From NCBI GenBank assembly GCA_030626405.1, contig DAOUPA010000001.1:1437-65436 (forward strand): 64,000 bases of DNA. Reading direction: 5' to 3'. A program made the position numbers and the translations under genes. This document shows positions 15,450-42,238 of the stretch, one piece after another. Below the pieces are notes generated by a model that saw only the letters and a list, made by a program, of their open reading frames with translations, made no database searches and had not been told where the DNA came from. Source of the DNA: Planctomicrobium sp. (lineage in GTDB: Bacteria; Planctomycetota; Planctomycetia; Planctomycetales; Planctomycetaceae). Position 1 is the first letter of the stretch. Every line of letters starts with the position of its first letter.

Positions 15450-15495
15450 AAAACAGACCCTTTCAAAATTTGCAAAACTCAAGTAATCGTTGACC

Positions 15496-16365: not shown

Positions 16366-16387
16366 GGTTTAGGACTTTAGTGTTTAG

Positions 16388-16408: not shown

Positions 16409-16558
16409 AGAATCACGCGAACTCGCCAAATAACTCGGATTTATCGATCAAGAAACAACTGTATCAATTCAAAAAACACTCGAGGAAATCGGGAGAATGT
16501 TATCTGGACTCAGGAATTCGCCGTCAAAAACTGCTAACTCCTAAATCCTATCTCCTAA

Positions 16559-18043
<1,485 letters not shown>

Positions 18044-25240: not shown

Positions 25241-26347
25241 ATGGCGGATAATAAGAAACTTACAACTGCAGAAATTCTTGCCCTCGCCCGCCAGCAAAAC
25301 AGCGGTGGAGGTGCGGATGCCGATGACGCTTCGGAGAGCAGCACTGCTCCTGAAACTTCTCAGGCTCCTGTTCCGACTGAAGATAAAAAACCTGCGGCAG
25401 CCCCAAAGTCAACTGCTGACATTCTCGCTGCTGCTCGTACTCAGGGGGGTGAGGCCGAGAAGCCGAAACCTGCCACGGCGCCAGGGTCAACAGCAGATAT
25501 CCTGGCTGCTGCCCGTGCTCAGGGAGGCGGGGCCCAAGGCGGAGGAGCGCCAAAGCCAAAGCCTGCTGCCACTGCACCTAAGTCGACCGCTGATATCTTG
25601 GCGGCTGCTCGTGCTGGAGGCGGAAGTGCTGCGAAAGCGGCACCTGCTGCAAGTCAGCCGAAGGTGAAAAAAGCTGAAGCCGCACCTGTCGGTGATCGTC
25701 CTGCATTGAAGGATATGGTTGCCGCGGTCAAAGAGGCTCAGGCTTCAGGTGGTCCGGCAAAGCCGAAGCTTCCTGTTGGTAAGCCTGCACCTGCGAAACC
25801 AAAGTTTCCGAGCAAGAAAGAAAAGGTTGAGCGTCGAAAATTTGTTGCTACCTTGGCTGTCCTTCTGCTCACACCTTTTGTGGTGGCATGGTCTTCGATG
25901 AGTGCGATTGCGGCAATCTGGTCGCTCGGAATTGCTCGATTCATGATGCCGAACATGATGTTGGAGCTGCCATCCAAATTTAAGGTTGGCCCCCCTTCTG
26001 ATTTCCCACCAGGCAGTGTCTCTGCAAAGTTTAAGGCAAGCCGTGGGATTTGGATTATCAATACTGATGAGTATGAAGGTCAGGGCATTATTTACGCGTT
26101 GGCTTCCGTTTGTACTCACCTTGGGTGTACTCCTAACTGGCTCGAAGGGGAACAGAAATTCAAATGTCCCTGTCACGGGTCAGGTTTTTATATCACTGGA
26201 GTGAACTTCGAAGGCCCTGCACCTCGCCCCTTGGAGCGAGTTGGAATTAGCATTGCGGATGATGGAATGCTAGAAGTTGACAAAAGTGTGAAGTTTCAGG
26301 AAGAGCTGGGTCAGTGGTCTGACTCCAAATCTTACGAAGTGGCATAA
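25241..26347 (+). CDS. Rieske [2Fe-2S] subunit of a cytochrome b6f/bc-type complex, with a long repeat-containing N-terminal extension
   Basis: 368 aa. The Rieske boxes are CTHLGC and CPCHGS. A twin-arginine motif (ERRKFV) followed by a TM helix occurs only at about residue 198. It is preceded by an Ala/Pro/Lys-rich region with repeated STADILAAAR modules. Confidence 0.9.
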   Translation: MADNKKLTTAEILALARQQNSGGGADADDASESSTAPETSQAPVPTEDKKPAAAPKSTADILAAARTQGGEAEKPKPATAPGSTADILAAARAQGGGAQGGGAPKPKPAATAPKSTADILAAARAGGGSAAKAAPAASQPKVKKAEAAPVGDRPALKDMVAAVKEAQASGGPAKPKLPVGKPAPAKPKFPSKKEKVERRKFVATLAVLLLTPFVVAWSSMSAIAAIWSLGIARFMMPNMMLELPSKFKVGPPSDFPPGSVSAKFKASRGIWIINTDEYEGQGIIYALASVCTHLGCTPNWLEGEQKFKCPCHGSGFYITGVNFEGPAPRPLERVGISIADDGMLEVDKSVKFQEELGQWSDSKSYEVA

Positions 26348-26414: not shown

Positions 26415-27188
26415 ATGTCGGTAACTGAATATATCCGGAAGTCACAGATTTGGCGAAGTATTTTTCGTCATCCTGCCCCATATGATCGCCGCAACCGTGC
26501 GGTTGTCATTCTGACGAACTTCTTCCTCCACCTGCACCCGGTCTCTGCAAAGAAGGGCGGAATTGCCCTGTCGTACACGTGGTGCATGGGTGGAATTACT
26601 TTTTTCCTATTCCTTGTCGAAACGCTCACTGGCGTCCTGTTGATGTTCTACTATCGACCGACGCTGGAGTGGGCATTTACAGATATTCGTGCCCTGCGAG
26701 ACGTGAACACTCTGGGGATCATGCGTGAGATTCACCGCTGGGGGGCGCACGCGATGGTGATCACCGTGTGGCTCCATATGTACCGGGTGTTTCTGACGGG
26801 GAGTTACAAGCCTCCGAGGGAATTCAACTGGGTCATTGGTGTCTTGCTACTCGTGTTGACTCTACTATTATCGTTTACCGGTTACCTGCTTCCGTGGGAT
26901 CAGCTAGCCATCTGGGCGATTACGGTCGGTTCGAACATGGCTCGTGCGACACCTTTCCTTGGTCATGAAGGTCCGGGGTTCCAGCTACTTAATGTTGGTG
27001 GGTTTGATTTAATCACAAATGCAAGTGATGCGAGATTCCTGCTCCTCGGGGCACGTACAGTGGGTGAAGAAACCTTGAATAGGTTCTACATTCTGCACTG
27101 TGTTGCAATTCCGATTGTGGTTTCAGGGCTGATCGCCGTTCACTTTTGGCGCGTTCGTAAAGATGGTGGGATTAGTCAACCGCTATAG
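26415..27188 (+). CDS. Cytochrome b, b6-type (N-terminal four-helix half)
   Basis: 257 aa. Helix B has H-x13-H (EIHRWGAHAMVITVWLH). Helix D has H-x14-H (LHCVAIPIVVSGLIAVH). WCMGGIT aligns with the YCLGGIT of cytochrome b6. Confidence 0.9.
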   Translation: MSVTEYIRKSQIWRSIFRHPAPYDRRNRAVVILTNFFLHLHPVSAKKGGIALSYTWCMGGITFFLFLVETLTGVLLMFYYRPTLEWAFTDIRALRDVNTLGIMREIHRWGAHAMVITVWLHMYRVFLTGSYKPPREFNWVIGVLLLVLTLLLSFTGYLLPWDQLAIWAITVGSNMARATPFLGHEGPGFQLLNVGGFDLITNASDARFLLLGARTVGEETLNRFYILHCVAIPIVVSGLIAVHFWRVRKDGGISQPL

Positions 27189-27270: not shown

Positions 27271-28635
27271 ATGAATCCTCATCCCGATTTAACGGTTGGC
27301 GTGATTCACGGCCTTGGCTGGCTGTACCTGCTGTTGTTCTTTTTGAACCTCGGCTGGACAGTCCGTAGCTATAAGGTTGATGGTCAATACGAAAGCCTGA
27401 TGGGCATCAAGCATGCCCCCAAGGCTTTGGTGTGGGCAGCTTACTCTGCGCTTTTACTGATCGTGACGCTGGTTCACTTTGCGGTTGAAAGCGACGCATC
27501 GAATTTCAAACTGAGACTCCCCGAATTCATTAAAAATCCGGCAGACGCCGTGATTGCGAATCCGATTAGTTTTTTCTGCCTGTCGATAGTCATTTACGCT
27601 GCCATCATCCTGCTTCGCAAATGGTGGGTCAAGCCGACAGTCTCTTGGGTTTTATTCAACCTGAGCGTGCTGTTCATTACTGTGAGTATGACAGACTACG
27701 ACTTCCGTAAAATTGTCGGCAAGCCCGATAACGTTCCTATTGTCGGGATGCTCTTCCTGGTCGGCTTCACGACATGGCTATACTTCTCAAAAGCCAATGA
27801 GAACGACCGGCGAATTGCCGAAGGACTTCCGGTTCGCGAGAAGGAACTCTCTGACCAGGTTCTTGTCTGGCCGGATCTGGTCTACACTGAAATGATCTGT
27901 ATGATCCTGATTACGGCACTTCTCATTGTCTGGGGTGTCGCACTTCAAGCTCCACTCGAAGAACCTGCCTCAGCAGTGAAGACCCCGAATCCTTCAAAAG
28001 CTCCGTGGTACTTCCTCGGACTGCAGGAAATGCTCGTCTACTTTGACCCCTGGATGGCTGGTGTTGTTCTGCCGAGTGTGATTCTCGTCGGACTGATGGC
28101 AATTCCATACATTGACTTCAACACCAAGGGCAACGGATATTACACATTCAATGAACGTAAGTTTGCAATTTCAACATTCCTATTTGGCTTTATGCCGCTG
28201 TGGACCGGAATGATCGTTCTCGGAACCTTCATTCGTGGACCGAACTGGAACATGTTTGGACTCTATGAATACTGGGATGCACACAAGCTTGAGGTGCTGA
28301 ACAATGTCAACCTGTCCGATTATTTCTGGCTGAGTTTCCTGGAACTTCCACTTCCGAAACCTGACCCGCAAGCGGGGTTTTTCTCGCAAGCTGGTTCAAT
28401 CCTTTTACGTGAGTGGACCGGAATCCTTGTGATTTTGTTTTACTTATTCGCGATTCCACCACTATTGGCAGTCACCATTTTCAAGAAGTTCTTCGTGAAA
28501 ATGGGATTTGTCCGGTTTATGGTGCTTGCGAACCTGTTTCTTTTTATGGCCTCACTACCATTGAAGATGGTGCTGCGGTGGGTCTTTAATCTGAAATACA
28601 TCGTTTCGATTCCCGAGTGGGTCTTTAACATCTAA
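27271..28635 (+). CDS. Subunit-IV-like (cytochrome b C-terminal half) membrane protein, enlarged
   Basis: 454 aa with about 10 TM helices. KAPWYFLGLQEML corresponds to the PEWYF motif of subunit IV and the cytochrome b C-terminal half. The first roughly 220 aa are extra TM helices. Confidence 0.75.
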   Translation: MNPHPDLTVGVIHGLGWLYLLLFFLNLGWTVRSYKVDGQYESLMGIKHAPKALVWAAYSALLLIVTLVHFAVESDASNFKLRLPEFIKNPADAVIANPISFFCLSIVIYAAIILLRKWWVKPTVSWVLFNLSVLFITVSMTDYDFRKIVGKPDNVPIVGMLFLVGFTTWLYFSKANENDRRIAEGLPVREKELSDQVLVWPDLVYTEMICMILITALLIVWGVALQAPLEEPASAVKTPNPSKAPWYFLGLQEMLVYFDPWMAGVVLPSVILVGLMAIPYIDFNTKGNGYYTFNERKFAISTFLFGFMPLWTGMIVLGTFIRGPNWNMFGLYEYWDAHKLEVLNNVNLSDYFWLSFLELPLPKPDPQAGFFSQAGSILLREWTGILVILFYLFAIPPLLAVTIFKKFFVKMGFVRFMVLANLFLFMASLPLKMVLRWVFNLKYIVSIPEWVFNI

Positions 28636-28708: not shown

Positions 28709-31700
28709 ATGCCAGCAAGTGAACAGTATTGGCGAAGTCTCCCGCAAATGCACAAAGTATTTGCGGCGAGTGCCGTGTTGCTACTCGGTACGACTTTGTT
28801 AATGATGTACAAAGACGAATCCCGTTCCTGGAAGCACTACCAGAAGCAGGCGGAGGCGTACCGCATACAGCGTATTGAACAGGAGCGCGAGCAATACAAC
28901 GATGCCGATTATCTCAAGAAAGTAAAAGAACTCGACGAGAGCGTGAAGCTCCTCCAAGCGGATTGGGACGCGAGATCCTCCGAAATTCGAGATCTTGAGT
29001 CGGGTCTCAAGGCATTAGAAGGTCAAGTTCAAATTCTCAAAGCAAGGTCGAAGACGAAAAACGCCGAGCGAGATAAAGCGAGAGCTGATTACGACATTAA
29101 GGTTCGAGATGAATCGAGCGAAAGTGAACTTGCTGAAGCTCTGGAAACCTTCGAACAGGCAAAGCTCATTGCAGATGAAACTGCACTTGAATCTGAGCAA
29201 GCGTTAGCAGAATTTGAAGCATCTAAGAGTGAACTCAACAAACAACGCAGCAAACTCGATGCTGCGAAAGACGCACTTGCTGAGACGACTGCGGCTGAGA
29301 AAGCCTTGGTGGAACAGAAGAATCTGCTTAAGCCAGATAATGGTTTTGTCGCTTTTAAACGCTGGGCGAAGGAACTCCCGATTCTGGAAGGGTTCAATCC
29401 TCATATCAAAATTCAATACGATTGGCCATCAGGCTTGGAACAGGAATTAGGCTCTGCCGTTGTTGATCGCGTTGACCGTTGCCGAACTTGTCACGTCTTT
29501 ATTGATGACTTCAGCGTCATTCGCGAAGGTGGTCAAGTTGTTGCAATGAAGCAGAGTTATCCGGACGGAGATTTTCCACAGCCGTTCGTATCCCATCCAA
29601 ATCCCGATCTCTTCCTCACGGCAGCTAGTCCTCACCCTGTCAATGACTTTGGGTGTACAATCTGCCACGCTGGCGATGGATCAGGCACAAGTTTTCAAAA
29701 CGCAGAGCACACGCCTGGGAATCCAGTCGTCGCTGCGAAATGGGAAAAAGAACATGATTGGCATTCCAATCACTTCTGGGAAGCACCACAACTTCCTGGG
29801 AGTTTCATCGAGTCGAGTTGCCTGCAATGTCACCACGACGTGGTTGAACTTGGTGTGAACCCCACATTTGGAGCGACTGCTCCGAAGCTCTTCAAAGGCT
29901 GGGAAACCATTCGGGATTATGGCTGCTTTGGTTGCCATGAAGTGAATGGCTTCGATGGAATCACACCGATTGGTCCCGACCTGCGGCTAGAACCAAACTC
30001 ACCGGAAGAGCTCGCCGTGATCGAGGCCGATCCGAATATGATCCCAGGAAAAATGCGAAAGGTCGGACCATCGCTTCGCCATATCGCCGATAAAACGACC
30101 CCGGAATTCATTGCGTACTGGACAGAAGAGCCAAGCCGGTTCCGACCGACAACGCGAATGCCGCAGTTCTTTGACCTGACCAATCAGCACGATGCCATGG
30201 CAGCACTGTTACAGCCAATGGAGCTTGCTGGCATTGCGAAGTACCTCGAAGCAAAATCTCAGAAGTTCGAGTACCTCTCACCAAGCAACGACTACAAACC
30301 TGATCCAAAACGTGGCGAAGAGCTCTTCTCCAAACGCGGGTGTCTGGCATGTCACAGCAAGCAAGGCGAAGCCTTTGACGGGATTGCTGCGAACTTCGGT
30401 CCAGACCTTTCCAGAATACACGAGAAAATCAAACCCGGTGAGGATGGCTTTAAGTGGATGTACACTTGGATCAAAGAGCCAAGTCGGTATCACACTCGTA
30501 CGCGAATGCCAGATCTTTATCTGAAGCCATACAACGAAGGTGACACTCACATCGACCCGGCAGCTGATATCGCGGCGTTTCTACTTCAAGGTGGAGCCAA
30601 AGAATTCCCTGCCTTGCCGACACCGAAACCGAATCTCGGATTGGTCGCAGCGCATGATTTCACCCTGAAAGACGCAAAAGAACTTGGCCTCAGTGATGAT
30701 CAATTCCGTGGCATTCTGGTTCAGGAAGTGATCCAGGGAAGTCCTGCTTCTCGTGCCGAAGTGAAAATTGGAGAGGACTGGGAAGAACGTCCTCTCTCTG
30801 TCGGCGATGTTGTCACCAGTTTCAACGGAACAGCAGTCAAGTCTCCGGAACACCTGAAAGAACTCGAAGCTGCTTCCAGTGTCAATGAAATCGTGACCTT
30901 AGATATCCTTCGAAACGGTCGCGAACTGACCGCTCGGTTAACTGTCACAACGCCACTGGATGATCTTGTCCGCTTGTTCTTGGGAAAAGCCCTTGATAGT
31001 GCAGGTTTGAAAAAGGCACTCGCAGAACGAAAGTACCCTGTCACCGCCGAAATGTTTGCTGACGGTGCATTGCTTCCAGACGTTGTTAAAGGTGATGAAG
31101 TCGAACTCGCACCTTTGAGTGCAGATGAGGAAGTGACGCCAGAGCAGTGGGAAGAACGAAAACTCGTCTATCTCGGTCGGCGAACAATTTCGCGATATGG
31201 CTGCTATGGTTGCCACGACATCCCAGGCTTTGAAACGGCACGTCCCATCGGAACTGCACTTCAAGATTGGGGACGAAAAGACACCTCGAAACTTGCTTAC
31301 GAGCACATTCACGAGTACCTGCATCATCACGGCGAACCAGTTGCCAAGTCAGAAGATGGCCATAATTCACACGCTCATGGTTCTCACAATGACGATGCAC
31401 ATGCGGCACTCGGAACAAGCACAGCTTCTCGGATGGAGAAAATTGTTGCGGACAAAGAAGCTGGTGGCGATGTCAGCGAACAAGATCTGACTGAAGCGAT
31501 GCTTTACAAAAGTGTCATTTCGCATGGTCGATCCGGATTCCTCTGGCAAAAACTTCGTCAGCCTAGAAGTTACGATTACAAGAAGACCGAAACAAAGGGT
31601 TGGGACGAACGGCTACGAATGCCGAAGTTCCCACTAGATACAGATCAGATCGAATCTGTCTCGACGTTTGTTCTGGGGTTGATCGCTCATCCTCCTTCGG

Positions 31701-32881
31701 AAGAATTCCAGTACCGACCAGATAAATCCAAAGAAGCAATCTTTGAAGGAGAACGCCTCCTCGCCAAATTCAATTGTACAGGCTGCCATGTTCTTGAAAT
31801 GGGTTCAGTCGAGTTTGAGTACGATCCAGCAGTCCTGGCGATCAAAGGTCAGGAAGTTGCAGACGCAGATCGTGCAGCCTTTGATTTACTCTCGCACATC
31901 AAGCCAATCGGGCGAGGTGGACAAGGTGCAACTGGTGAAACGACAGAGGATGGTTCTCTGGTTTACCGAGCCAACGGATTCATTCAGGGGATCCCTGATC
32001 CAGATGAAGAAGACCCTGAGTTCCGCTTCTTCTCATACCGTTTCTGGGATGGTTTCCAACTCGCTGATGGAAAGTACATCATGCCGAGTGAAGGAGTTCA
32101 AATCGCCGAAGGCCAGCTTCGCAAGTTTATCGATGGTCGGGGTGGAAAGTTTGCCGAGTGGCTCGCTGGCAAGCTCGCTCCAGAACTGAGCAAAACGCCT
32201 GGCGGTACCGACTACAACGCAGCCTGGCAGGCATCAGTTCCTCCGTTAACTGCCGAAGGTTTCAAAGTGCAGACTCCGTGGCTGTATCAGTTCCTCAAAA
32301 ACCCTGAGCAATTGCGACGGACAACGGTTCTTCGAATGCCTCGATTTAACATGAGCGATGAAGAAGCTCAGACGTTGGCAAACTACTTCGCCGCAAAGGA
32401 TGGGGTTCCGTTCCCATATCAATCAATTCCACCAAAAGAATTGGGATATCAGGTAGAGCAGGCTGCGACGTACAACGCGAAATATCCGGGTGCCGAATAC
32501 GATTACCTCACAGCTTCCTGGAATGTTTTGAACGGTCCATTGTGTCGGAAGTGTCACAATGTCGGTGGAAACGTCGTCAATGACCCGAAGCAGGTTAAAG
32601 GTCCGAATCTTCAACGCACCGAAAGAAGATTACGACCGGAATGGACTCAGCTGTGGGTCTACAAACCAATGTGGGTTTACCCCTACACATCCATGCCAGA
32701 GAACTTCCCAGCCGGAAAACCTGCCGACATGAAGAAGCTTTTTGGTGGTGAGAACCCTCGCCAGGCTCAGTCGATCATTGACGCACTCTTTAACTACACA
32801 CAGCTGATCGAAATCCATGGTCCGACAACTTACAATCCAGAGTCAGCCGCCCCTCCAACGAAAGCAGGTGGCGCAGAATGA
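28709..32881 (+). CDS. Membrane-anchored octaheme cytochrome c with coiled-coil, PDZ and His-rich segments
   Basis: 1390 aa. It has an N-terminal TM helix and about 180 aa of heptad-like charged sequence. There are eight CxxCH motifs (CRTCH, CTICH, CLQCH, CFGCH, CLACH, CYGCH, CTGCH, CRKCH). A PDZ-like segment (GILVQEVIQGSPASRAEV...GDVVTSFNG...LDILRNGRE) is also present. Confidence 0.85.
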   Translation: MPASEQYWRSLPQMHKVFAASAVLLLGTTLLMMYKDESRSWKHYQKQAEAYRIQRIEQEREQYNDADYLKKVKELDESVKLLQADWDARSSEIRDLESGLKALEGQVQILKARSKTKNAERDKARADYDIKVRDESSESELAEALETFEQAKLIADETALESEQALAEFEASKSELNKQRSKLDAAKDALAETTAAEKALVEQKNLLKPDNGFVAFKRWAKELPILEGFNPHIKIQYDWPSGLEQELGSAVVDRVDRCRTCHVFIDDFSVIREGGQVVAMKQSYPDGDFPQPFVSHPNPDLFLTAASPHPVNDFGCTICHAGDGSGTSFQNAEHTPGNPVVAAKWEKEHDWHSNHFWEAPQLPGSFIESSCLQCHHDVVELGVNPTFGATAPKLFKGWETIRDYGCFGCHEVNGFDGITPIGPDLRLEPNSPEELAVIEADPNMIPGKMRKVGPSLRHIADKTTPEFIAYWTEEPSRFRPTTRMPQFFDLTNQHDAMAALLQPMELAGIAKYLEAKSQKFEYLSPSNDYKPDPKRGEELFSKRGCLACHSKQGEAFDGIAANFGPDLSRIHEKIKPGEDGFKWMYTWIKEPSRYHTRTRMPDLYLKPYNEGDTHIDPAADIAAFLLQGGAKEFPALPTPKPNLGLVAAHDFTLKDAKELGLSDDQFRGILVQEVIQGSPASRAEVKIGEDWEERPLSVGDVVTSFNGTAVKSPEHLKELEAASSVNEIVTLDILRNGRELTARLTVTTPLDDLVRLFLGKALDSAGLKKALAERKYPVTAEMFADGALLPDVVKGDEVELAPLSADEEVTPEQWEERKLVYLGRRTISRYGCYGCHDIPGFETARPIGTALQDWGRKDTSKLAYEHIHEYLHHHGEPVAKSEDGHNSHAHGSHNDDAHAALGTSTASRMEKIVADKEAGGDVSEQDLTEAMLYKSVISHGRSGFLWQKLRQPRSYDYKKTETKGWDERLRMPKFPLDTDQIESVSTFVLGLIAHPPSEEFQYRPDKSKEAIFEGERLLAKFNCTGCHVLEMGSVEFEYDPAVLAIKGQEVADADRAAFDLLSHIKPIGRGGQGATGETTEDGSLVYRANGFIQGIPDPDEEDPEFRFFSYRFWDGFQLADGKYIMPSEGVQIAEGQLRKFIDGRGGKFAEWLAGKLAPELSKTPGGTDYNAAWQASVPPLTAEGFKVQTPWLYQFLKNPEQLRRTTVLRMPRFNMSDEEAQTLANYFAAKDGVPFPYQSIPPKELGYQVEQAATYNAKYPGAEYDYLTASWNVLNGPLCRKCHNVGGNVVNDPKQVKGPNLQRTERRLRPEWTQLWVYKPMWVYPYTSMPENFPAGKPADMKKLFGGENPRQAQSIIDALFNYTQLIEIHGPTTYNPESAAPPTKAGGAE

Positions 32882-33744
32882 TGATTCGCATGCAAACTAA
32901 ACAGATAGTATTTTCCGGACTTTTGTTGTCGACTCTCTTCGTCGCTGGATGTGGTTCATCCGTACGAAAAGAAGCCCTCGGCGGTGGAGCCTTAACGCCT
33001 GTGACTATCACACTTTTGCGTGAAGGTGGATCAGGTGATTCAGAGGCGGAATCCGCAGAATCGGCTGGCCCGAAAATCACAGAATTCGGAATGGTTCGCG
33101 GAAAAATTTCCGTCGATGGAAGCTTGCCACAACTTGCTGATGTGAGTGCGAAAGGTCAGGCGAAAGATGCCATCTGCGGAGAGAAGGGAATTAAGAATGA
33201 ATCCGTTACAGGAGAAAATGGTGGCTTGGGGAATGTCTTCATCTACCTGAAAAAGGTTCCAAACGTTGATGTTCCACCTCCATCAACAGATCAGATCGTC
33301 ATGGACCAGCAAGGATGCATGTTCGTTCCGCACGCACAGGTTGTTCAGGTTGGTCAACCAGTCCTGCTTAAAAATTCTGATCCAATTGCCCACAATGTGA
33401 AACTACAAGGTGGTTCGAATTCTCTTGCAGAAACGATTTCGCCAAACAATGCCGCCAACGTCGAATACAAATTTCAGTTCAGTGATCGAAAGCCAACCGG
33501 CGTTGTCTGTGACTTTCATACATTCATGTCTGCTTACGTCATGCCTGTCGACCATCCATGGGCTGCGGTGACAAATCCTGACGGGACGTTTGAAATACCA
33601 AATGTTCCTGCTGGAAAGGTAGAGTTCGTCATCTGGCACGAGAAGCTCGATTATATCGAACGCTCATATTCGGTTGATGTTCCAGCAAACGGTGATGCAG
33701 CGCCTATCGAGATCACAGTTAATGCGTCGAAGTTGTCCAGTTAA
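32878..33744 (+). CDS. Cupredoxin-like (type-1 copper) lipoprotein, paralog 1
   Basis: 288 aa. The lipobox is FVAGC. The cupredoxin pattern is FVPHAQVVQVGQPVLLKNSDPIAHNV ... CDFHTFM (C-x2-H-x2-M). A C-terminal beta-sandwich follows (NPDGTFEIPNVPAGKVEF). Its ATG overlaps the upstream stop (ATGA). Confidence 0.7.
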   Translation: MMIRMQTKQIVFSGLLLSTLFVAGCGSSVRKEALGGGALTPVTITLLREGGSGDSEAESAESAGPKITEFGMVRGKISVDGSLPQLADVSAKGQAKDAICGEKGIKNESVTGENGGLGNVFIYLKKVPNVDVPPPSTDQIVMDQQGCMFVPHAQVVQVGQPVLLKNSDPIAHNVKLQGGSNSLAETISPNNAANVEYKFQFSDRKPTGVVCDFHTFMSAYVMPVDHPWAAVTNPDGTFEIPNVPAGKVEFVIWHEKLDYIERSYSVDVPANGDAAPIEITVNASKLSS

Positions 33745-33775: not shown

Positions 33776-34747
33776 ATGTTTGCTCGGTTTCAATTACAAT
33801 TTGTTCTTCTACTTACGGTTGCGATCTTTTCAGGTTGTACGCCGCAGTTTCGTCGTGAAAAGACGGAAGTGAAGTCGGCATCGGATGTCGTGATTCATTT
33901 CGATGATCTTTCCTCTTCAAACAATTCCGAAGAGACTCCCGATGAAGCCGCCACACCTGCAACAACTCCGACAGCAGGTAATGAGTCAACTACAGCGACG
34001 ACTCCTAAAAAAGAGATGGTCGCAGCGACCACGACCTCAAAGCCTGACGTTGCAAAACAAGCCCCGACCACTACGGGCTACACTGGACCAGCGAAGTTCG
34101 TTGGTCGAGTCGTAGTGAAAGGGGATGTTCCTCTGTTTTCAGCACTTCTCGCTAAAGGTGCGGCGACAAAAGATATGTTTTGCTCAGAAATGGCTGTCCC
34201 TAACGAGACGGTCATCTCCAAGGATGGCGGGTTAGGGAACGTTTTCGTCTACATGAAAAAAGCTCCAAGAAAAGGTGTTCCTGAATACTCTGGCGAGCCG
34301 TTTGTCGTCAATCAAAAAGGGTGCATCTTCATTCCTCACGCACAAATTGTCAGAGTTGGGCAGCCTTTCATTTTGAAGAACTCAGACCCCGTTGCACACA
34401 ATGTCAGGTACAACGGATTCGCATCACAATTTAACGACACCGTCGTCTCTGGTTCGACAGATGGTTTGACAAAGGTCATTGAGTTCCCTGAGCGACTCCC
34501 AGCCGGGATGGTGTGCGATTTTCACAATTGGATGTCAGCCTATGTTTTGCCTGTTGATCATCCGTGGGCTGCTGTGACCGATGCCGATGGGAATTTCGAA
34601 ATCACAAATCTTCCAGAAGGGAAGTGGGATTTCGTCATTTGGCATGAGAAGGCGTTGTATATCGAACGATCATTCAAGGTCACCGCCGCACCTAACACCC
34701 TTATTGAAAAAGTTTTTGAAGTCAATGCGTCAAAACTGTCGCAGTAA
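33776..34747 (+). CDS. Cupredoxin-like (type-1 copper) lipoprotein, paralog 2
   Basis: 323 aa from ATG 33776. The lipobox is FSGC, followed by a Thr/Pro-rich linker. It has the same motifs as paralog 1: FIPHAQIVRVGQPFILKNSDPVAHNV ... CDFHNWM. Confidence 0.7.
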   Translation: MFARFQLQFVLLLTVAIFSGCTPQFRREKTEVKSASDVVIHFDDLSSSNNSEETPDEAATPATTPTAGNESTTATTPKKEMVAATTTSKPDVAKQAPTTTGYTGPAKFVGRVVVKGDVPLFSALLAKGAATKDMFCSEMAVPNETVISKDGGLGNVFVYMKKAPRKGVPEYSGEPFVVNQKGCIFIPHAQIVRVGQPFILKNSDPVAHNVRYNGFASQFNDTVVSGSTDGLTKVIEFPERLPAGMVCDFHNWMSAYVLPVDHPWAAVTDADGNFEITNLPEGKWDFVIWHEKALYIERSFKVTAAPNTLIEKVFEVNASKLSQ

Positions 34748-34769
34748 CCACAAGTATCGAGTTTTTCCT

Positions 34770-36215
34770 GTGAGAACTTTTTTCACACTATCGATGATCT
34801 GCCTGATCTCCGGTTGCGGAGGACAGCCTGAATTTTCGCACAGCGAGAAGTTTCAGACGCTGAAGCCGTACGCACAAATTTACGTGGATCAGGTTCTCGA
34901 CAACTACTTCGGATCACCATCTGACATGGTTGCCTGGGACAAACTGCCACTGGAACTTCACTACGGTCAAGGGACTGTTGTTGAAGCGAGTGGGCGAATG
35001 TTGACGGTCGAACTTCAAGCCCCACATGCCGAAATCACTGCTGGCACAGAAGTTCTTTGGGACAGTGGCATTCTCAATGACAAAGACAGCGCCTGGATTC
35101 TTGAATGGGACGAAGCAAAGCACCAAGCAAAATTGGAATCACCACTGGCAACCAATCCTGAAGTTGGTGATGCGGTCATTCTCGGACCTGGACAAATTCT
35201 GGCAACTGGGCGAATGCTCTATGCAGAACATTGTCAGCATTGTCACGGCGTTGCTGGCGACGGGAATGGACCGACAGCTCCTTATTTGAATCCACGACCT
35301 CGCGATTACCGCAAAGGGATTTTTAAATTCACAACGACACAAAGTTCCAAACGAGCCAGTCGTGAAGATTTGTCGCGTATCGTGGAAGACGGAATTCCTG
35401 GAACGTATATGCCTTCATTCAAATTATTGACTGAAGACGAGATGACCTCCATCATCGAGTACGTCATGTGGCTCTCGATGCGGGGTGAACTTGAAAACCA
35501 ACTCATCGGACTTCTGGCAGACAGCTATTCCGTTGAAGCGGTAGAAGATCGGATCGCTGGTGGGGATGAGACTTCTGATACAATTCATCAAGAATTCATT
35601 GATGCAGTCAACGATCCCGATTCATTTCCGTTTGAAGTCGACACAATCGTTTCTCGATTTACATCGGAATGGGTCTCGTCTCAGGAACCTGATGCAGAAG
35701 TTCAGCCTTTGACTCCGCGCACCCCTTCCTCTGATGAGTCGATCGCGAAAGGCCGCGAATTGTATTTGAAACCAAGCCTCAAGTGTGCTCAATGCCACGG
35801 CGAAGCTGGTCTCGGTGACGGATCACAAACTTTTGCTGTCTCCAAAGATGCGGCAGGACAGGATAATCTGACGCCTGGTCTCTACGACACTTGGGGAAAC
35901 CTGGTGAAACCCCGAAATCTTCACTCTGGAATATATCGTGGTGGTCGTCGACCGATCGATCTTTACTCTCGTATTTATGCAGGAATCAAAGGCACACCGA
36001 TGCCTGCGTTCTCTTCAACATTGCTCCGTAAATCTAATCCAGAAGATTCCGGATCGGAAATGACGGATGAAGATATCTGGCATCTCGTCAACTACATCTA
36101 CAGCATTCCATTCGAAGATGTCAAAGCGGGGCAGGGTGGATCGTCTATTGCAAATCCAGTGAAAGACGCCAATACCGCCAGTGAAGAAGATAGCGAAGAA
36201 GTTGCAGTAAATTAG
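34770..36215 (+). CDS. Diheme cytochrome c lipoprotein
   Basis: 481 aa from GTG 34770. The leader is (M)RTFFTLSMICLISGC. It has two CxxCH motifs (CQHCHGVAGDGNG; CAQCHGEAGLGDG) and GIPGTYMP / GIKGTPMP Met-ligand contexts. The longer ORF from 34581 overlaps the upstream gene. Confidence 0.8.
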   Translation: MRTFFTLSMICLISGCGGQPEFSHSEKFQTLKPYAQIYVDQVLDNYFGSPSDMVAWDKLPLELHYGQGTVVEASGRMLTVELQAPHAEITAGTEVLWDSGILNDKDSAWILEWDEAKHQAKLESPLATNPEVGDAVILGPGQILATGRMLYAEHCQHCHGVAGDGNGPTAPYLNPRPRDYRKGIFKFTTTQSSKRASREDLSRIVEDGIPGTYMPSFKLLTEDEMTSIIEYVMWLSMRGELENQLIGLLADSYSVEAVEDRIAGGDETSDTIHQEFIDAVNDPDSFPFEVDTIVSRFTSEWVSSQEPDAEVQPLTPRTPSSDESIAKGRELYLKPSLKCAQCHGEAGLGDGSQTFAVSKDAAGQDNLTPGLYDTWGNLVKPRNLHSGIYRGGRRPIDLYSRIYAGIKGTPMPAFSSTLLRKSNPEDSGSEMTDEDIWHLVNYIYSIPFEDVKAGQGGSSIANPVKDANTASEEDSEEVAVN

Positions 36216-36346: not shown

Positions 36347-37228
36347 GTGAAGTGGTTTTGGTGTCTATTTTTTGCATTTTGGCCAATTGTCGCAATTGTC
36401 GTCTGCTTGTTGGCGCCAGGTAACAACTGGTGGTTTCCAGGTGAGGCTGCGTCTCCGCTTGGTCGGCGTATTGATGACTTGTTCTACATGATCTTGTGGA
36501 TCACTTCGATCACATTCGTGGGAACCCAACTCGTTCTGGCGTACGTGTTGTTCAAAGGTGCGAGTGATACCGAACCAGGTACAGCGAATGAGAAAGCTTG
36601 GTTCTCTCATGGAAGCCATAAACTGGAAGTTATCTGGTCGAGCGTTCCAGCAGTGATCCTGCTGTTCATTGCGTTCTATCAACTTGATGTCTGGGCTGAA
36701 TACCGTGTCAAAGATGCGTTTCCACGCAAACGTATGGAAGCTGTCTTTGAACGAATTCATCAGGACCGTCAAAAGAACGACAGTCTCGCATTGGCAGAAG
36801 TCACAGCACGACAATTCGAATGGCGAATTCGCTATCCCGGCTTCAACGCAGATGGCACGCTCAAGGCACTCATGCCAGACCCACAACCAACCGATTTGTA
36901 CGCAGTCAACGATCTTCACTTACCTGCCAGTGCACCAGTGATGATCAACCTGAGAACTCAGGATGTCCAACACTCATTCTTCTTACCAGAACTACGTATC
37001 AAACAAGATGCAGTGCCTGGATTAGTCATTCCAATTTGGTTTGAAGCGGACCAACAACGTTCCTATCAACTGCTCTGTGCTGAACTTTGCGGTTGGGGAC
37101 ATTACAAAATGAATGCCCGGTTCGTCGCAGAATCGGACGAACAGTTTATCGAATACCTCCGTCAACTCGAACGCGAACAAAACGAAGATCGAGTCGACGA
37201 CGCACCAGACACGGATGAAGAAGAGTAA
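36347..37228 (+). CDS. ctaC: Cytochrome c oxidase subunit II (CuA; no fused cytochrome c domain)
   Basis: 293 aa with two N-terminal TM helices. The CuA site is HSFF ... CAELCGWGHYKM. Confidence 0.92.
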   Translation: MKWFWCLFFAFWPIVAIVVCLLAPGNNWWFPGEAASPLGRRIDDLFYMILWITSITFVGTQLVLAYVLFKGASDTEPGTANEKAWFSHGSHKLEVIWSSVPAVILLFIAFYQLDVWAEYRVKDAFPRKRMEAVFERIHQDRQKNDSLALAEVTARQFEWRIRYPGFNADGTLKALMPDPQPTDLYAVNDLHLPASAPVMINLRTQDVQHSFFLPELRIKQDAVPGLVIPIWFEADQQRSYQLLCAELCGWGHYKMNARFVAESDEQFIEYLRQLEREQNEDRVDDAPDTDEEE

Positions 37229-37289
37229 TACTGAAAGAGCAATCTTTCGAGTCTTCTTTTTCGTTAGTCAATACATTTGGAGTGAGGCG

Positions 37290-39074
37290 GTGAGTTCAGT
37301 CGCAGCCACAACAGAAACTGCAGAACACGGTCATCATGCACACAATGATGATCTACTTGCGCTCTTAAAAGCAGCACCATTCTGGTCAACCGATCATAAA
37401 GTGATCGGTATCCAGTTTATGATGACGACACTTCTCATGTTGATGGTCGGTGGTGCGCTCGCGCTGGGGGTTCGCTGGCAGTTGGCATTTCCCTGGGAGA
37501 ACATGCCGTTTTTCGGAGCATTGGTTCCGGCGACAGCAGGCGGACAAATACCGCCTGAGTTCTACACAATGCTCTTTACGATGCATGCAACGGTGATGAT
37601 CTTCCTTGTGATCATTCCAATTCTTGCAGGAGCATTCGGAAACTTCCTGATTCCGCTGATGATCGGTGCGGACGACATGGCGTTCCCGATGTTGAACGCC
37701 TTGAGCTACTGGTTCATGTGGCCTGCAATCGCCTGTTTTGGATGTAGCTTTTTCTTCGGAGGTGGTCCAGCTGCAGGGTGGACATCATACCCAGCTCTTT
37801 CTGCCCTTTCTCAAGCTGCTCCAGGCTCTGGACACGCACAAACATTCTGGTTGTTGGGAGTTACATTTGTCGGGTTCTCGTCGATGATGGGTTCGATCAA
37901 CTACATGACGACGATCATCAATATGCGGGCACCTGGCCTGACGCTCTTCCGGATGCCACTGACAATTTGGTCAATGTTCATCACAGCAATTTTACAGGCG
38001 TTCGCGTTGCCGGTCCTCACCGCCGCAGGCTTCATGCTTGTCACCGACCGGATCTTGGGCACTTGCTTCTTCGTTCCGGCTGGACTGATCGTTAATAACG
38101 CCGATCCAACAGTCGGCGGCGGACAAACGCTGCTTTGGCAGCACTTGTTCTGGTTCTATTCTCACCCTGCGGTGTACATCATGTTGCTGCCTGCAATGGG
38201 TATGGTTTCGGACATGCTTGCCTGCATGTGTCGTAAGCCAATCTTCGGATACAAGCCAATGGTTTATTCCATGTCTGCGATTGCTGGCCTAGGGTTTATC
38301 GTGTGGGGGCACCACATGTTTACCTCTGGAATGAATCCCGCGCTCGGGATGACATTCATGATTTCGACAGTCATGATCGCGTTGCCATCAGCGGTGAAGG
38401 TGTTCAACTGGATCGGTACGATCTGGGGCGGGAAACCGGAATTCAACGTTGTCTTCCTGAATTGTATTGCATTCGTTTCGATGTTCATCGTCGGTGGACT
38501 TTCCGGAATTTTCATGGCTGCCGTGCCTGTCGACATTTATATTCACGACACATACTTCATCGTTGCTCACTTCCATTACGTGCTGTTCGGGGCAACGTTG
38601 TTTGGAGTCTTTGGAGCCATCCACTTCTGGTATCCGAAAATGTTCGGTCGCTACATGAGTGAAGGCTGGGGCAAGCTGCACTTCTTCTTGACCTTTGTCG
38701 GCTTCAATGGAACATTCTTCCCCATGCACCTGCTTGGTGTTGCTGGGATGCCTCGTCGATATGCCGATCCTTACCTATACCCTTATCTGGAACATTTTCT
38801 CCCGATGAATCAATTCATGACGATTTGTGCTGCCCTCATGGGATTCGCACAATTCATCTTGATCGGGAATTTCGTTTTGAGTTGGTTCTTCGGTAAAAAG
38901 GCCGGGCGGAACCCTTGGAATGCAAATGGTCTCGAATGGGCAACTCCATCGCCTCCTGGTCATGGAAACTTCGACATTCCACCGGTTGTTTACCGTGGAC
39001 CGTACGAATACGCAAATCCAGATACCGAAGCTGACTTCTGGCCACAAACGCAGCCGCCGAATCCAGCGACTTAA
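37290..39074 (+). CDS. ctaD: Cytochrome c oxidase subunit I (A-type heme-copper oxidase)
   Basis: Motifs: WFYSHPAVYIMLLP, GHHMF, HFHYV and 12 or more TM helices. The GTG start at 37290 follows a GGAG/GAGG motif. The ORF from 37113 overlaps ctaC. Confidence 0.95.
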   Translation: MSSVAATTETAEHGHHAHNDDLLALLKAAPFWSTDHKVIGIQFMMTTLLMLMVGGALALGVRWQLAFPWENMPFFGALVPATAGGQIPPEFYTMLFTMHATVMIFLVIIPILAGAFGNFLIPLMIGADDMAFPMLNALSYWFMWPAIACFGCSFFFGGGPAAGWTSYPALSALSQAAPGSGHAQTFWLLGVTFVGFSSMMGSINYMTTIINMRAPGLTLFRMPLTIWSMFITAILQAFALPVLTAAGFMLVTDRILGTCFFVPAGLIVNNADPTVGGGQTLLWQHLFWFYSHPAVYIMLLPAMGMVSDMLACMCRKPIFGYKPMVYSMSAIAGLGFIVWGHHMFTSGMNPALGMTFMISTVMIALPSAVKVFNWIGTIWGGKPEFNVVFLNCIAFVSMFIVGGLSGIFMAAVPVDIYIHDTYFIVAHFHYVLFGATLFGVFGAIHFWYPKMFGRYMSEGWGKLHFFLTFVGFNGTFFPMHLLGVAGMPRRYADPYLYPYLEHFLPMNQFMTICAALMGFAQFILIGNFVLSWFFGKKAGRNPWNANGLEWATPSPPGHGNFDIPPVVYRGPYEYANPDTEADFWPQTQPPNPAT

Positions 39075-39162
39075 TACTGCCGTACTGAAGTTCTTCTAAT
39101 TCTGATACCCATTTTCCGCAGTTCGCTGCAAAGTTGTATTTCCAGAGACTTGTCAATTTCTA

Positions 39163-40137
39163 ATGTCCCCACAAAGTTCAACAAACTGGTTTCGCCGACT
39201 GGCCGTTTCGACGGTTTGCCTGACGATGGTGACGTTGATCTTTGGAGCATTGACGACATCCAAGAACGCTGGAATGGCTTTTCGTGACTGGCCGACATCC
39301 GATGGTTACTTAATGGTGACTTATCCCTGGTTCGGTGACTTCGCGAAAAATTGGGATAAGTTTCTGGAGCATGGGCACCGACTGGCAGGAATGTTGATCG
39401 GCATCTGGTCAATTGCCCTTGTCGCGTGTGCCTTCAAAACCCAGCAAAGACAAACAGTCAAAACCCTTTCAATTCTGGTGTTATTGGGTGTAATTTGTCA
39501 GGGACTACTCGGAGGATTTCGCGTTCAACTTGATGAACGTGGACTGGCAATGCTCCACGGAGCATTCGCAGCAATCGTCTTCGCCCTGATGGGTGCCGTC
39601 ATCCTCCTTTCAGGAAAGAAGTGGGCCGCACCAGAACCCGAATCAGAACGTAACACGCTGCGAACGATGAAGGTTCTTTCCGTATTGGTCGTTGCTATTC
39701 TCACTGCTCAGTTCATCTTCGGTGGACTGATCCGACATCGAGGGACCGGTTTACATGAACATCTGGTACTGGGTGTCGCATCGCTCGGTCTCATTTTTGT
39801 GAACTTCACATTCTGCGGATTTTCGGAATCTGGCTGGTTGAGAAAGTCGGGAATTATTCTGCTGCTCATTGCCTTGGGACAAGTCGGCTTGGGAGCCGGT
39901 GCCTGGGTTTTGAAATTCGGATTTGCCACAACAGGTTACGTAGCGATTAGTGATTCGATTCAGCAGGTGACTCTGCGCACGGCCCACACTGTTTGGGGCA
40001 TCGTCACATTTCAAGCTGCCGTTGTTCATCTCTTAAAAGTTTTCCGAGTGAGTTCTGTTTCTCATATTGCAAGTTCAGAACCGCTGGCGATCCGCCGATC
40101 CGGGAACACGCTCGCGATTGGAGGGAGACAGGAATGA
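39163..40137 (+). CDS. ctaA: Heme A synthase (COX15/CtaA family)
   Basis: 324 aa with 8 TM helices and conserved His contexts (EHGHRLAG, ...LHEHL). It lies between ctaD and ctaB. Confidence 0.85.
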   Translation: MSPQSSTNWFRRLAVSTVCLTMVTLIFGALTTSKNAGMAFRDWPTSDGYLMVTYPWFGDFAKNWDKFLEHGHRLAGMLIGIWSIALVACAFKTQQRQTVKTLSILVLLGVICQGLLGGFRVQLDERGLAMLHGAFAAIVFALMGAVILLSGKKWAAPEPESERNTLRTMKVLSVLVVAILTAQFIFGGLIRHRGTGLHEHLVLGVASLGLIFVNFTFCGFSESGWLRKSGIILLLIALGQVGLGAGAWVLKFGFATTGYVAISDSIQQVTLRTAHTVWGIVTFQAAVVHLLKVFRVSSVSHIASSEPLAIRRSGNTLAIGGRQE

Positions 40138-41105
40138 GTACATCTGTTGCCACTCCCGTTCGAAGCAAGACTGCTTCACCAACGAATCAAATCAGCGCTG
40201 GTTATGTCGATGATCGATATCCGATGTCGGCTCGGATTGCCAGCTATTCTGAACTCGCCAAGCCGCGCATTGCACTGATGGTGTTACTGTCAATGGGGGT
40301 CGGCTACCTACTGGGTTCACAAGGATCCTGGAAACTGCTTCCGTTGATCAACGCCGGGATTGGCGTGGTACTTGCTGTTGTTTCAGCGAGTGCACTGAAT
40401 CAAGTCATCGAGCGTAAGACTGACGCACTGATGCCACGGACAGAAAGTCGACCATTGCCGACTGGAAAACTGACAACAACCGAAGTCCTCATCTTCGCTT
40501 TGCTGTGTTCGGTCGTCTCCTTCGTCTATCTCCTACTGACCGTTAATACATTAACCGCCGTCCTGACTGCAGCAACGACGGTTCTTTATGCTGGAATTTA
40601 CACACCGCTGAAAAGGTATACGTCGTTTTGCACAGCGGTTGGTGCGATACCCGGGGCCGCTCCGCCGGTCCTCGGTTGGGTCGCCGCTGGTGGAAACCTG
40701 GACATTGTTGCCTTCTCGTTGTTTGCAATCATTTTCGTCTGGCAGTTTCCACATTTCCTTGCCATCGCGTGGATGTACAAAGACGAATACTCCGGTGCCG
40801 GATTGAAAATGGTCCCTGGGAATGGTCGACTAAAAATTGTTGGAGCCATCTCGCTGGGGTACGCCCTGGTGTTAATTCCAGTCAGTTTATTGCCTACCCA
40901 TTTTGGGTTGGCTGGCGACTTTTACGGAGTCGTTGCCATCGTCCTTGGAATGATTTACATCGCTGCGGCGATCGGTTTTTATCGAGAAGAATCTCGGCAG
41001 AACGCACGTCGATTACTGTTTGTCTCACTCGTTTACCTTCCGGGCGTTTTGCTCGCATTAACGTTTGATCATTTACGATTATTAAACAATTCCACCTTCG
41101 GGTAA
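40134..41105 (+). CDS. ctaB: Protoheme IX farnesyltransferase (heme O synthase)
   Basis: 323 aa from ATG 40134, which forms an ATGA overlap with the ctaA stop. UbiA-family motifs are present (NQVIERKTDALMPRT, YTPLKR, WQFPHFLAIAWMY). Confidence 0.92.
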   Translation: MSTSVATPVRSKTASPTNQISAGYVDDRYPMSARIASYSELAKPRIALMVLLSMGVGYLLGSQGSWKLLPLINAGIGVVLAVVSASALNQVIERKTDALMPRTESRPLPTGKLTTTEVLIFALLCSVVSFVYLLLTVNTLTAVLTAATTVLYAGIYTPLKRYTSFCTAVGAIPGAAPPVLGWVAAGGNLDIVAFSLFAIIFVWQFPHFLAIAWMYKDEYSGAGLKMVPGNGRLKIVGAISLGYALVLIPVSLLPTHFGLAGDFYGVVAIVLGMIYIAAAIGFYREESRQNARRLLFVSLVYLPGVLLALTFDHLRLLNNSTFG

Positions 41106-41119
41106 CATTGTCGCATTTT

Positions 41120-41145
41120 GCCTCACGGGCATCATACTGTGAGGC
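41120..41145 (+). repeat. Hairpin related to the GCCTCAC variant of the REP-like element
   Basis: GCCTCAC ... 12-nt loop ... GTGAGGC, 15 nt after the ctaB stop. It shares the stem sequence with the copy at 22905 but lacks the CACTTNAAGTG core. Confidence 0.35.
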
Positions 41146-41224
41146 ATGTGACACCTGAGTCGTGGGCACAAAATTCCTTTAATAGATTCGCGGGTTATTG
41201 ACTCGCACTTGAGGTTGCTGTTTC

Positions 41225-42238
41225 ATGTCTGACTCACATCATGCTCCTGCCATGCACATGGGTTTGCCGATTTCCAGAGCCAAACTGGGCATGTGGTTGT
41301 TTCTCGGTACGGAGATCATGTTTTTCACGGCGTTCATCGGAACGTATATCGTGCTGTACTTCGGCTCCGTCGACGCCACCGGCAAATCCGCCTGGCCGAC
41401 CGATACACATGTCACTCACCTCAACATCGCCGCAGGTGGGATCAACACATTTGTCCTGCTTGCTTCAAGTTACTTTGTCGTCGTCGCTCACGAATCGATG
41501 TCAAAGCGGGATTTCGCGAAAGCTCGAAAGTTTCTGATTTTCACATTTATTCTCGCATGTGTGTTCCTGGGAATTAAGTCCTTTGAATACTACGGAAAGT
41601 TCACTCACGACATTCTTCCCGGACACATTCCAGAGACAGACACGCAAGCGATCGGGAAAATGGAAAGACAAGTGGAGTCCCGATTCCACAAGCGGCTAGA
41701 TTCCGTCGTTCCTGATATCGCCATTACAGATGTTGACGGAGACAACAAACCAGACCGCGCGATGCCCACCGACCAGAGTATGATCTATTACCAAAAGGCG
41801 GCAGCACTTCCTCAACTCATTGAGAGTGCAGAAGGTTCTCGAAAGGCAGACTATGAAGCATTACTCGCACTCAATGGTCAAGTCGGCGTTCTCCGCGAAC
41901 AAATTTCAGGAAACAAATTGACCTTCGTGGAAGCTGAAGAGTCGCTGCACGAGATGGTCGAAGATGAGCATTATGGCAGCATCCTTAGCGGTCTGCATAT
42001 GTCGACTCCGATCTTGTATGGGAATTTGTTTGCCTCAGTCTACTTCCTGATGACTGGCTTTCACGCAATCCACGTGATTGTCGGAATGATTCTATTTGGA
42101 ACGGTTCTGGCCCAAGGTGACAAACTGAGTGAGCGTTGGTCAAACTGGGTTGAAAACAGCGGACTCTATTGGCACTTTGTCGACCTGGTCTGGATCTTCC
42201 TGTTTCCGTTGCTGTACATCATTCCTGGAAACATTTAA
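41225..42238 (+). CDS. ctaE: Cytochrome c oxidase subunit III, with a large internal insertion
   Basis: 337 aa. Motifs: [37 protein letters not shown]. About 130 hydrophilic residues are inserted after the FEYY helix. Confidence 0.88.

Follow-up and report, generated by a model that had tools for sequence, protein, structure and literature searches.

A predicted membrane-anchored octahaem cytochrome c encoded next to the Rieske/cytochrome b genes of Planctomycetota

In the Rieske/cytochrome b complexes of anammox planctomycetes, hexa- or octahaem cytochromes replace cytochrome f, and the subunits, including a large cytochrome with long helices, were reported to co-migrate (PMC12954380). Because these organisms already have multihaem c subunits, the concept of such a subunit is not unprecedented (PMC12954380). 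Here we analysed a stretch of 64,000 nucleotides from Planctomicrobium sp. (GenBank assembly GCA_030626405.1, contig DAOUPA010000001.1, positions 1,437 to 65,436 of the forward strand), hereafter the window, in which an octahaem cytochrome c gene occupies positions 28709..32881 (coordinates are those of the window, and all features of the cluster lie on its plus strand). A preliminary description, made from the sequence alone, had taken the product to be the c-type subunit of the adjacent Rieske/cytochrome b complex. Our analysis indicates that the octahaem protein is probably the periplasmic, membrane-anchored electron-output subunit of a Planctomycetota-specific b6-type Rieske/cytochrome b complex, its physical membership in that complex being suggested by gene order.

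The closest described counterparts are the Kuste4573/Kustd1485 systems of Kuenenia, which resemble the window system in belonging to Planctomycetota, in combining a split b6-type cytochrome b with an enlarged subunit IV and in having a membrane-anchored hexa- or octahaem cytochrome c in the place of cytochrome f. On the other hand, the anammox clusters carry NAD(P) oxidoreductase subunits, one of the clusters additionally has an HAO-like enzyme, and they have no link to an aa3 oxidase, unlike the window cluster. Neither a PDZ domain nor a series of class-I domains was reported for the anammox subunits, and the resemblance to Kustd1485, described as a large protein whose long alpha-helices wrap around its complex, is by description only (PMC12954380).

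Regarding the better-known c-type subunits, cytochrome c1, cytochrome f and QcrC share with the octahaem protein the gene position, the presumed role as periplasmic acceptor of Rieske electrons and a single-helix anchor, and QcrC additionally consists of tandem class-I domains and passes electrons directly to an aa3 oxidase. However, members of this class carry one or two haems in 25–30 kDa, compared with eight predicted haems in about 156 kDa for the octahaem protein, whose anchor is N-terminal rather than C-terminal as in c1 and f, and which adds a hairpin and a PDZ domain. The cytochrome c1 and apocytochrome f families were absent from the Pfam scan (E ≤ 0.01) and from the PDB sequence and fold matches of the octahaem protein, and NF050122, the NCBIfam model of the actinobacterial dihaem QcrC, scored 18.2 bits against a cut-off of 200, in agreement with the earlier statement that the protein is unlike c1, f and the dihaem subunits of other bc-type complexes. 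In Alternative Complex III (ACIII), ActA (pentahaem) and ActE (monohaem) form an N-terminally anchored periplasmic wire from a quinol-oxidising module to a nearby-encoded aa3 oxidase. This wire resembles the octahaem protein in its function, but the ACIII core is of the molybdopterin family instead of Rieske/b and the types of haem domain differ; no sequence or fold match to ActA/ActE was detected by Foldseek or PDB profile search. Profiles of the NapC/NirT/NrfH quinol dehydrogenases likewise gave no Pfam or NCBIfam match.

The open reading frame (ORF) of the octahaem gene runs from ATG to stop over 1390 amino acids (aa), corresponding to an apoprotein of 155.7 kDa, and has full-length orthologues. 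Its eight CxxCH motifs start at aa 258, 316, 371, 406, 545, 832, 1023 and 1279 and contain all 16 Cys residues of the protein, whereas 0.005 motifs are expected from composition and no more than one arose across 20,000 shuffles; variant haem motifs such as CxxCK were not found in the sequence motif scan. The ORF, the motif scan and the shuffle test thus confirmed the eight motifs counted in the preliminary description. Although the database copy of the protein begins 13 residues later, we prefer the 1390-aa start, since these additional residues are conserved among homologues (MPAxDQYWRxLxxMHK). Collinear full-length orthologues are present in complete genomes, including those of Thalassoglobus polymorphus, Planctomicrobium sp. 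SH661, SH664 and Lignipirellula cremea. In addition, all eight CxxCH motifs were matched column by column, with all 24 motif residues invariant, in an alignment of 357 sequences (the window protein and 356 family members with eight CxxCH motifs and a length of 950 aa or more). Mis-assembly of several genes, which the preliminary description had named as one outcome that would overturn its reading, is excluded by these two observations, and a multi-gene fusion was rejected on account of the collinear orthologues. It is therefore confirmed at the sequence level that the ORF is a genuine, strictly conserved gene for a 156-kDa cytochrome with eight predicted haem sites.

The family is large. About 890 representative clusters (50% identity) match the octahaem protein at E ≤ 1e-30, and 484 species-level genomes encode an octahaem relative; exactly eight motifs were counted in 230 of 235 long members of a first sample and in 118/118 members of a second one centred on a divergent member. 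All named matches are Planctomycetota (Thalassoglobus, Planctomicrobium, Maioricimonas, Fuerstiella, Lignipirellula, Rhodopirellula, Thermoguttaceae and Pirellulales), and two matches labelled Chitinophaga (L065) and Nealsonbacteria (P0299) probably stem from mis-binned contigs rather than from family members outside the phylum. Judged by these matches, the octahaem family is confined to Planctomycetota. The first CxxCH has a bimodal position (70–150 or 250–466), and a PDZ domain was found in 150 of 233 sampled members, with PDZ-like sequence elsewhere in the chain in some lineages. The family has no name, NCBIfam contains no model for it, every match being far below cut-off, and neither a solved structure nor a curated family matching the protein was found in Pfam, NCBIfam, PDB and Foldseek searches. 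In the open literature searched, we found no description of such a subunit in non-anammox planctomycetes, although a prior mention is possible.

In order to follow the linkage to the Rieske/b genes, a mapping that the preliminary description had recommended, we surveyed the best 80 loci of the genome collection (Planctomycetaceae) together with seven loci from more distant relatives. The genes for the Rieske protein, cytochrome b6 and the subunit-IV-like protein (SUIV) stand directly before the octahaem gene in 74/74 Planctomycetaceae loci whose contig reaches upstream, and the same order was observed in six of the seven distant loci [Lignipirellula cremea (Pirellulales, complete genome), two distant metagenome-assembled genomes and three of four loci encoding the short, hairpin-less form of the protein described below]. 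Split by form, these genes are directly upstream in all long-form loci reaching upstream and in 3/4 short-form loci. Combined, the octahaem gene follows SUIV in 80 of the 81 loci extending far enough, so that its position directly after the subunit-IV-like gene, as first noticed in the window, holds almost throughout. On the downstream side, cupredoxin-like and then dihaem cytochrome c genes follow the octahaem gene in every locus extending far enough, and COX2 is located within 8 kb downstream in 45/45 long-form loci reaching that far, compared with 0/4 short-form loci.

Three points weigh against the assignment as the electron-output subunit. The first is the Qo motif of SUIV, APWY, since reverse operation was proposed for cytochrome b complexes of the APWY clade in some organisms (PMC4122944). 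The second is the single exception in the survey, L086 (GCA_020846145.1, JADLEL010000121.1, 10001-15472), where glycine-cleavage genes, in place of Rieske, b and SUIV, lie upstream of the octahaem, cupredoxin-like and dihaem c genes, indicating that the trio can be encoded apart from the Rieske/b core. The third is that the dihaem cytochrome of the cluster could be the direct acceptor of Rieske electrons, by analogy with Actinobacteria and Epsilonproteobacteria; other menaquinol bc complexes use dihaem c subunits for this purpose. The tightest genetic unit is indeed the trio. Accordingly, the octahaem, cupredoxin-like and dihaem c proteins might form a tethered, free-standing periplasmic module of their own rather than include a stable bc subunit, the dihaem c being the true equivalent of c1. 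We consider this arrangement rather unlikely, as we do the accompanying role of a hub that would collect or distribute electrons between bc complex and oxidase, and possibly also further redox enzymes of the periplasm. The close linkage within the trio, its occurrence in L086, the dihaem acceptors of other complexes, the absence of adjacent oxidase genes from the short-form loci (0/4) and the weak matches of NF050122 to both the octahaem and the dihaem c proteins are all consistent with a separate module, but it fits poorly with an octahaem gene that directly follows SUIV in 80/81 loci and with an N-terminal anchor that is conserved even in short forms. In addition, the dihaem c gene stands beside COX2 in long-form clusters, and co-migration with the respective complexes was reported for the anammox analogues (PMC12954380), both of which argue against a separate module.

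To obtain a view of the haem-bearing part, AlphaFold2 was run on aa 220–1390, which were predicted as a confident single body with a predicted local distance difference test score (pLDDT) of 82 and a predicted template modelling score (pTM) of 0.83. At its N-terminal end lies a three-haem module (aa 240–384, 29426..29860; CxxCH at nucleotides 29480, 29654 and 29819), in which the spacings between haems 2 and 3 and haems 3 and 4 are near constant at 55 and 35 residues across the family. The module gave weak matches to Cytochrome_C7, Paired_CXXCH and c3 profiles (PF14522, PF09699 and PF14537 were considered); PF14522 scored 32.9 bits on the whole protein against a cut-off of 24.8, and 18.6 bits on the isolated module.

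The remaining five haem motifs are located in class-I or class-I-like cytochrome c domains, D4 to D8. D4 (aa 385–520, 29861..30268; CxxCH at aa 406, Met484) matches PF00034 weakly and D5–D8 with hhalign probabilities of 96–98%, whereas D5 (aa 521–640, 30269..30628; CxxCH at aa 545, Met600) is recognized by PF00034 itself (46.1 bits over aa 534–627, gathering cut-off 21.3). D6 (aa 800–1000, 31106..31708; CxxCH at aa 832, Met971), D7 (aa 1001–1235, 31709..32413; CxxCH at aa 1023, Met1210) and D8 (aa 1240–1375, 32426..32833; CxxCH at aa 1279, Met1329) are class-I-like by profile comparison (97.9% for D4 versus D6 over the haem-binding part, 96.5% for D4 versus D7, 97.5% for both D4 and D5 versus D8), and most pairs among D4–D8 are mutually homologous at hhalign probabilities of 93–98%. 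D7 carries a beta-rich insert (aa 1028–1141), across which AlphaFold2 places strands. D6 contains a His-rich loop (aa 872–900, 31322-31408; HHHGEPVAKSEDGHNSHAHGSHNDDAHAALG), which is modelled at low confidence and specific to a Thalassoglobus-like clade; it could bind a metal, but neither the loop nor the HHH motif is conserved across the 357 sequences. Between D5 and D6 an accessory HtrA/DegP-type PDZ domain is inserted (aa 645–750, 30641..30958), as identified by PF13180 (41.2 bits, cut-off 27), by Foldseek matches to HtrA PDZ domains (TM-score 0.78–0.83 on the target) and by PDB profile search (DegP, E 2e-11).

The class-I pattern of D4–D8, namely CxxCH and a distal Met within an MP motif, framed by N- and C-terminal helices, is shared with cytochrome c4, CcoP/FixP, CcoO and NorC, and NorC and CcoO were weak PDB profile matches of D5 and D8, respectively. 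The octahaem protein differs from these tandem class-I cytochromes in having five domains per chain with large inserts, and in that a three-haem module, a PDZ domain, a coiled-coil hairpin and an anchor are part of the same chain. The whole-model Foldseek and the PDB sequence and profile searches gave no global structural analogue, only the PDZ domain, which is the one part with clear PDB relatives, and the weak CcoO and NorC matches. Regarding the very large, sparsely haem-loaded body of the preliminary description, its size and the wide spacing of the eight motifs hold, but the loading is not unusual: the body appears sparse because five ordinary monohaem class-I domains carry inserts and stand beside a compact three-haem module and a PDZ domain.

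Candidate haem ligands were sought in the alignment of 357 sequences. Outside the motifs, the only His or Met residues conserved in at least 95% of sequences were His296, His309, His334, Met484, Met600, Met971, Met1210 and Met1329. The three His residues lie in the three-haem module and are each present in 357/357 sequences, as are Met484, Met971 and Met1210, whereas Met600 and Met1329 are present in 356 and 355, respectively. Each of the eight haems thus has a single candidate sixth ligand, three of these being His and five Met. On this conservation we assign the three His and five Met residues as putative haem ligands, and the simplest reading would be a fully six-coordinate set with three bis-His haems ahead of five His/Met haems and no open site. 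One conserved candidate sixth ligand for every haem points to an electron transfer protein rather than an enzyme, and a catalytic role was rejected on this basis. A multihaem enzyme, such as a nitrite, hydroxylamine or peroxide oxidoreductase, might be suspected because eight haems are also found in HAO- and ONR-type enzymes and because an HAO-like octahaem protein is encoded in anammox Rieske/b clusters (PMC12954380), but we regard it as extremely improbable. Besides the invariant candidate distal ligands, the protein has no CxxCK or other variant motif, shows no similarity to HAO, ONR, NrfA or peroxidases in Pfam, NCBIfam, PDB and Foldseek searches, and places five of its eight haems in separate class-I domains and not in a packed catalytic core.

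The N-terminal transmembrane anchor noted in the preliminary description was borne out by hydropathy and by the AlphaFold2 model, which together define a signal-anchor helix at aa 11–37 (28739..28819) with a hydrophobic core at aa 14–35, the one hydrophobic segment of the whole protein. The anchor sequence is conserved in long- and short-form members alike. Since haems are attached at the outer side of the membrane, the protein would have an N-in topology, its remaining part being periplasmic.

Behind the anchor, AlphaFold2 on aa 1–420 (79 aligned sequences) predicted an antiparallel coiled-coil hairpin (28826..29329) made of a nearly continuous helix at aa 40–133, a turn at aa 134–137 and a second helix at aa 138–207, with pLDDT of 94–98 along both helices. 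The segment at aa 36–215 is 40% charged and contains one Pro and three Gly. A single-sequence Fourier test over this segment gave no significant heptad signal (P about 0.19), and alignment-averaged hydrophobicity of each helix was used in its place: helix 138–207 has an exact 3.5-residue period, matched by 0/3000 shuffles, whereas helix 40–133 has only local heptad runs with phase breaks. The top Foldseek matches of the N-terminal model were Smc and Smc5/6 arms, EnvC, HP0958, EmrA and p85 iSH2, all of them weak (E 0.006–0.1). EnvC, EmrA and other membrane-fusion adaptors as well as Smc arms have, like the octahaem protein, a long intramolecular antiparallel two-helix coiled coil after a membrane anchor, but nothing in these weak matches indicates homology or a common partner, and we take the modelled resemblance as geometric only. 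The sole strongly conserved stretch of the hairpin is the motif NAERDxARAxYDIxVRD (aa 118–134, 29060..29110), just ahead of the turn, which is invariant or nearly so in hairpin-bearing members and gapped in short forms.

Short-form members retain the anchor but lack roughly aa 57–230, their sequence resuming at about aa 230 of the window protein. Because they pass from the anchor straight to this point, the hairpin is a cleanly inserted accessory module, and such a clean insertion supports a fold that brings both ends together and disfavours an extended stalk. An extended stalk lifting the haem body off the membrane was rejected for the same reason, the segment being absent from the short-form subfamily. 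Of the long coiled-coil stalk proposed at first, the coiled coil therefore stands (AlphaFold2, heptads at aa 138–207), whereas the stalk gives way to a predicted hairpin that is missing in a whole subfamily. In the model the hairpin returns to its starting point, so that it probably does not raise the haem body from the membrane. It may project about 100–140 Å, as estimated from its 70–94 helical residues, or may instead wrap around the complex, by analogy with the long helices of Kustd1485 in AlphaFold3 models (PMC12954380). Both the hairpin and the PDZ domain would be structural modules rather than redox parts.

Upstream of the octahaem gene, the Rieske iron-sulfur protein (25241..26347, 368 aa) was identified by PF00355 and by its CTHLGC, CPCHGS and RRKF motifs. 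An Ala/Pro/Gly/Lys-rich N-terminal extension of about 195 aa precedes the twin-arginine motif RRKF (25832-25843; extension and motif together 25241-25843) and contains four (S/T)TA(D/E)ILAxAR repeats starting at 25262, 25409, 25487 and 25583; the extension should be cytoplasmic. The Rieske ORF has a median length of 374 aa in long-form loci (n = 60), compared with 155–198 aa in short-form loci (n = 3). The cytochrome b6-type subunit (26415..27188, 257 aa; PF00033, E 5e-42) has a CMGG motif (26583-26594), and since CxGG is associated with haem ci/cn (PMC5600118), this motif is a candidate haem ci/cn site. SUIV (27271..28635, 454 aa; PF00032) has about ten hydrophobic segments, where the canonical form has three helices and five were reported for anammox complexes. 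Its Qo motif APWY (28000-28011) is without the usual acidic residue. The cytochrome b part belongs to the APWY clade, in which Planctomycetes are listed and of which no member had been characterized as of the 2014 survey by Kao and Hunte (PMC4122944).

Directly downstream, the start codon of cupredoxin-like lipoprotein A (32878..33744) overlaps the octahaem stop codon by 4 nucleotides, which suggests translational coupling. Lipoprotein A was identified by its lipobox, an HNV...CDFHTFM motif and a weak amicyanin match, and its paralogue B (33776..34747) by the same motifs and by tblastn. Their lipoboxes are AGC and SGC, and in both an amicyanin-like pattern (HNV ... C-D-F-H-x-x-M) is followed by a carboxypeptidase-regulatory-like domain. 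Amicyanin is their only PDB or NCBIfam match, and a weak one (E 0.48 and 0.0024). The C-x2-H-x2-M motif occurs in 46 of 83 related loci, and copper binding may not be universal, since the homologue of one short-form locus (L084), which has a Tat signal, carries Gln and Glu at two ligand positions. The following dihaem class-I cytochrome c gene (34725..36215; PF00034, PF13442, two CxxCH) has an uncertain start: its ORF opens at 34581 and, as listed, overlaps the end of the preceding gene, but a lipobox, LISGC (34809-34820), sits well inside the longest ORF, so that the true start is probably 34725 or 34794 and the product probably a lipoprotein. Next come the genes of an aa3-type (A-family) oxidase, COX2 (with the CuA motif), COX1, CtaA, CtaB and COX3 (36347..42238, Pfam), followed by an ABC transporter pair (42924-44707) and, downstream of the oxidase cluster, a SCO1/SenC-DUF420 fusion (44620-45900), SCO1 being a copper chaperone for CuA; the transporter pair and the fusion probably serve oxidase assembly. 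All these genes, from Rieske through b6, SUIV, octahaem, the two cupredoxin-like proteins, dihaem c and COX2-COX1-CtaA-CtaB-COX3 to the ABC transporter and SCO1/DUF420, are arranged on one strand with short gaps, and all carriers encoded among them possess either a membrane anchor or a lipobox.

About 7 kb upstream of the Rieske gene, on the same strand and separated from it by CstA, ABC-2 permease and QueG genes, lies a complete operon for F1Fo ATP synthase (a, b, delta, alpha, gamma, beta; 10540-18043). All three systems, ATP synthase, bc module and aa3 oxidase, are thus encoded within about 32 kb.

The composition of the cluster bears on whether the complex runs in the opposite direction, with the octahaem protein as an input module that passes electrons from a periplasmic donor to the Rieske/b core, which would reduce menaquinone or a low-potential acceptor. 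We judge such reverse or bifurcating operation to be highly unlikely, although Kao and Hunte tie the APWY motif to reverse running (PMC4122944) and anammox relatives were proposed to bifurcate electrons towards NAD(P)+ (PMC12954380). The Pfam scan found no NAD(P) oxidoreductase or donor-oxidising enzyme encoded in the cluster, which is joined to the aa3 oxidase operon and its assembly genes in 45/45 long-form loci and has the ATP synthase operon close by. Moreover, the planctomycetes concerned are aerobic heterotrophs.

For the octahaem protein as output subunit, we infer in which order and direction electrons flow, and to which acceptors, as follows. Menaquinol would be oxidised at the Qo site of a complex with split b6, long subunit IV, a candidate haem ci and APWY, and the Rieske cluster would hand one electron to the nearest c haem. 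This haem is probably in the bis-His three-haem module, because this module comes straight after the anchor in short forms and after the returning hairpin in long ones. The electron would then pass along the five His/Met class-I domains and exit to the tethered acceptors whose genes come immediately after, namely one or two cupredoxin-like lipoproteins together with the dihaem cytochrome c lipoprotein, the final step being transfer to CuA of the aa3 oxidase. Membrane-tethered carriers of this kind would suit cells with a large, irregular periplasm.

A further proposal concerns the hairpin-bearing Planctomycetia, in which the bc module and the aa3 oxidase might form an obligate supercomplex without a diffusible carrier, the octahaem protein being both wire and organiser. 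We put this forward tentatively, and with the same reserve we suggest that it would be glued together by the hairpin, which has a conserved motif at its tip, by the PDZ domain and by the long extension of the Rieske protein in the cytoplasm. Hairpin, long Rieske and fusion of the bc and aa3 clusters co-occur in 45/45 long-form loci and in 0/4 short-form loci, and this co-occurrence, together with the membrane-tethering of all carriers in the cluster and the overlap of the octahaem gene with the next one, supports the supercomplex. Since the short-form sample is small and maybe a single clade, we treat the correlation of hairpin, long Rieske and oxidase linkage as a lead and not as a result.

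The novelty lies in the octahaem architecture, in its very wide spread within a single phylum and in the hard-wired connection with an aa3 oxidase. Among the parts of Rieske/b complexes, only the c-type subunit has been repeatedly replaced in evolution, and the octahaem family is seemingly the standard solution of a whole bacterial class, being encoded in at least 484 species genomes. The family leads to definite predictions, namely an eight-haem chain of three bis-His and five His/Met haems, tethered downstream carriers, and an optional hairpin and PDZ domain that track the fusion with the aa3 operon. These would bear on the layout of respiration in bacteria with enlarged, invaginated periplasms, and may also bear on the role of the puzzling multihaem subunits in anammox complexes.

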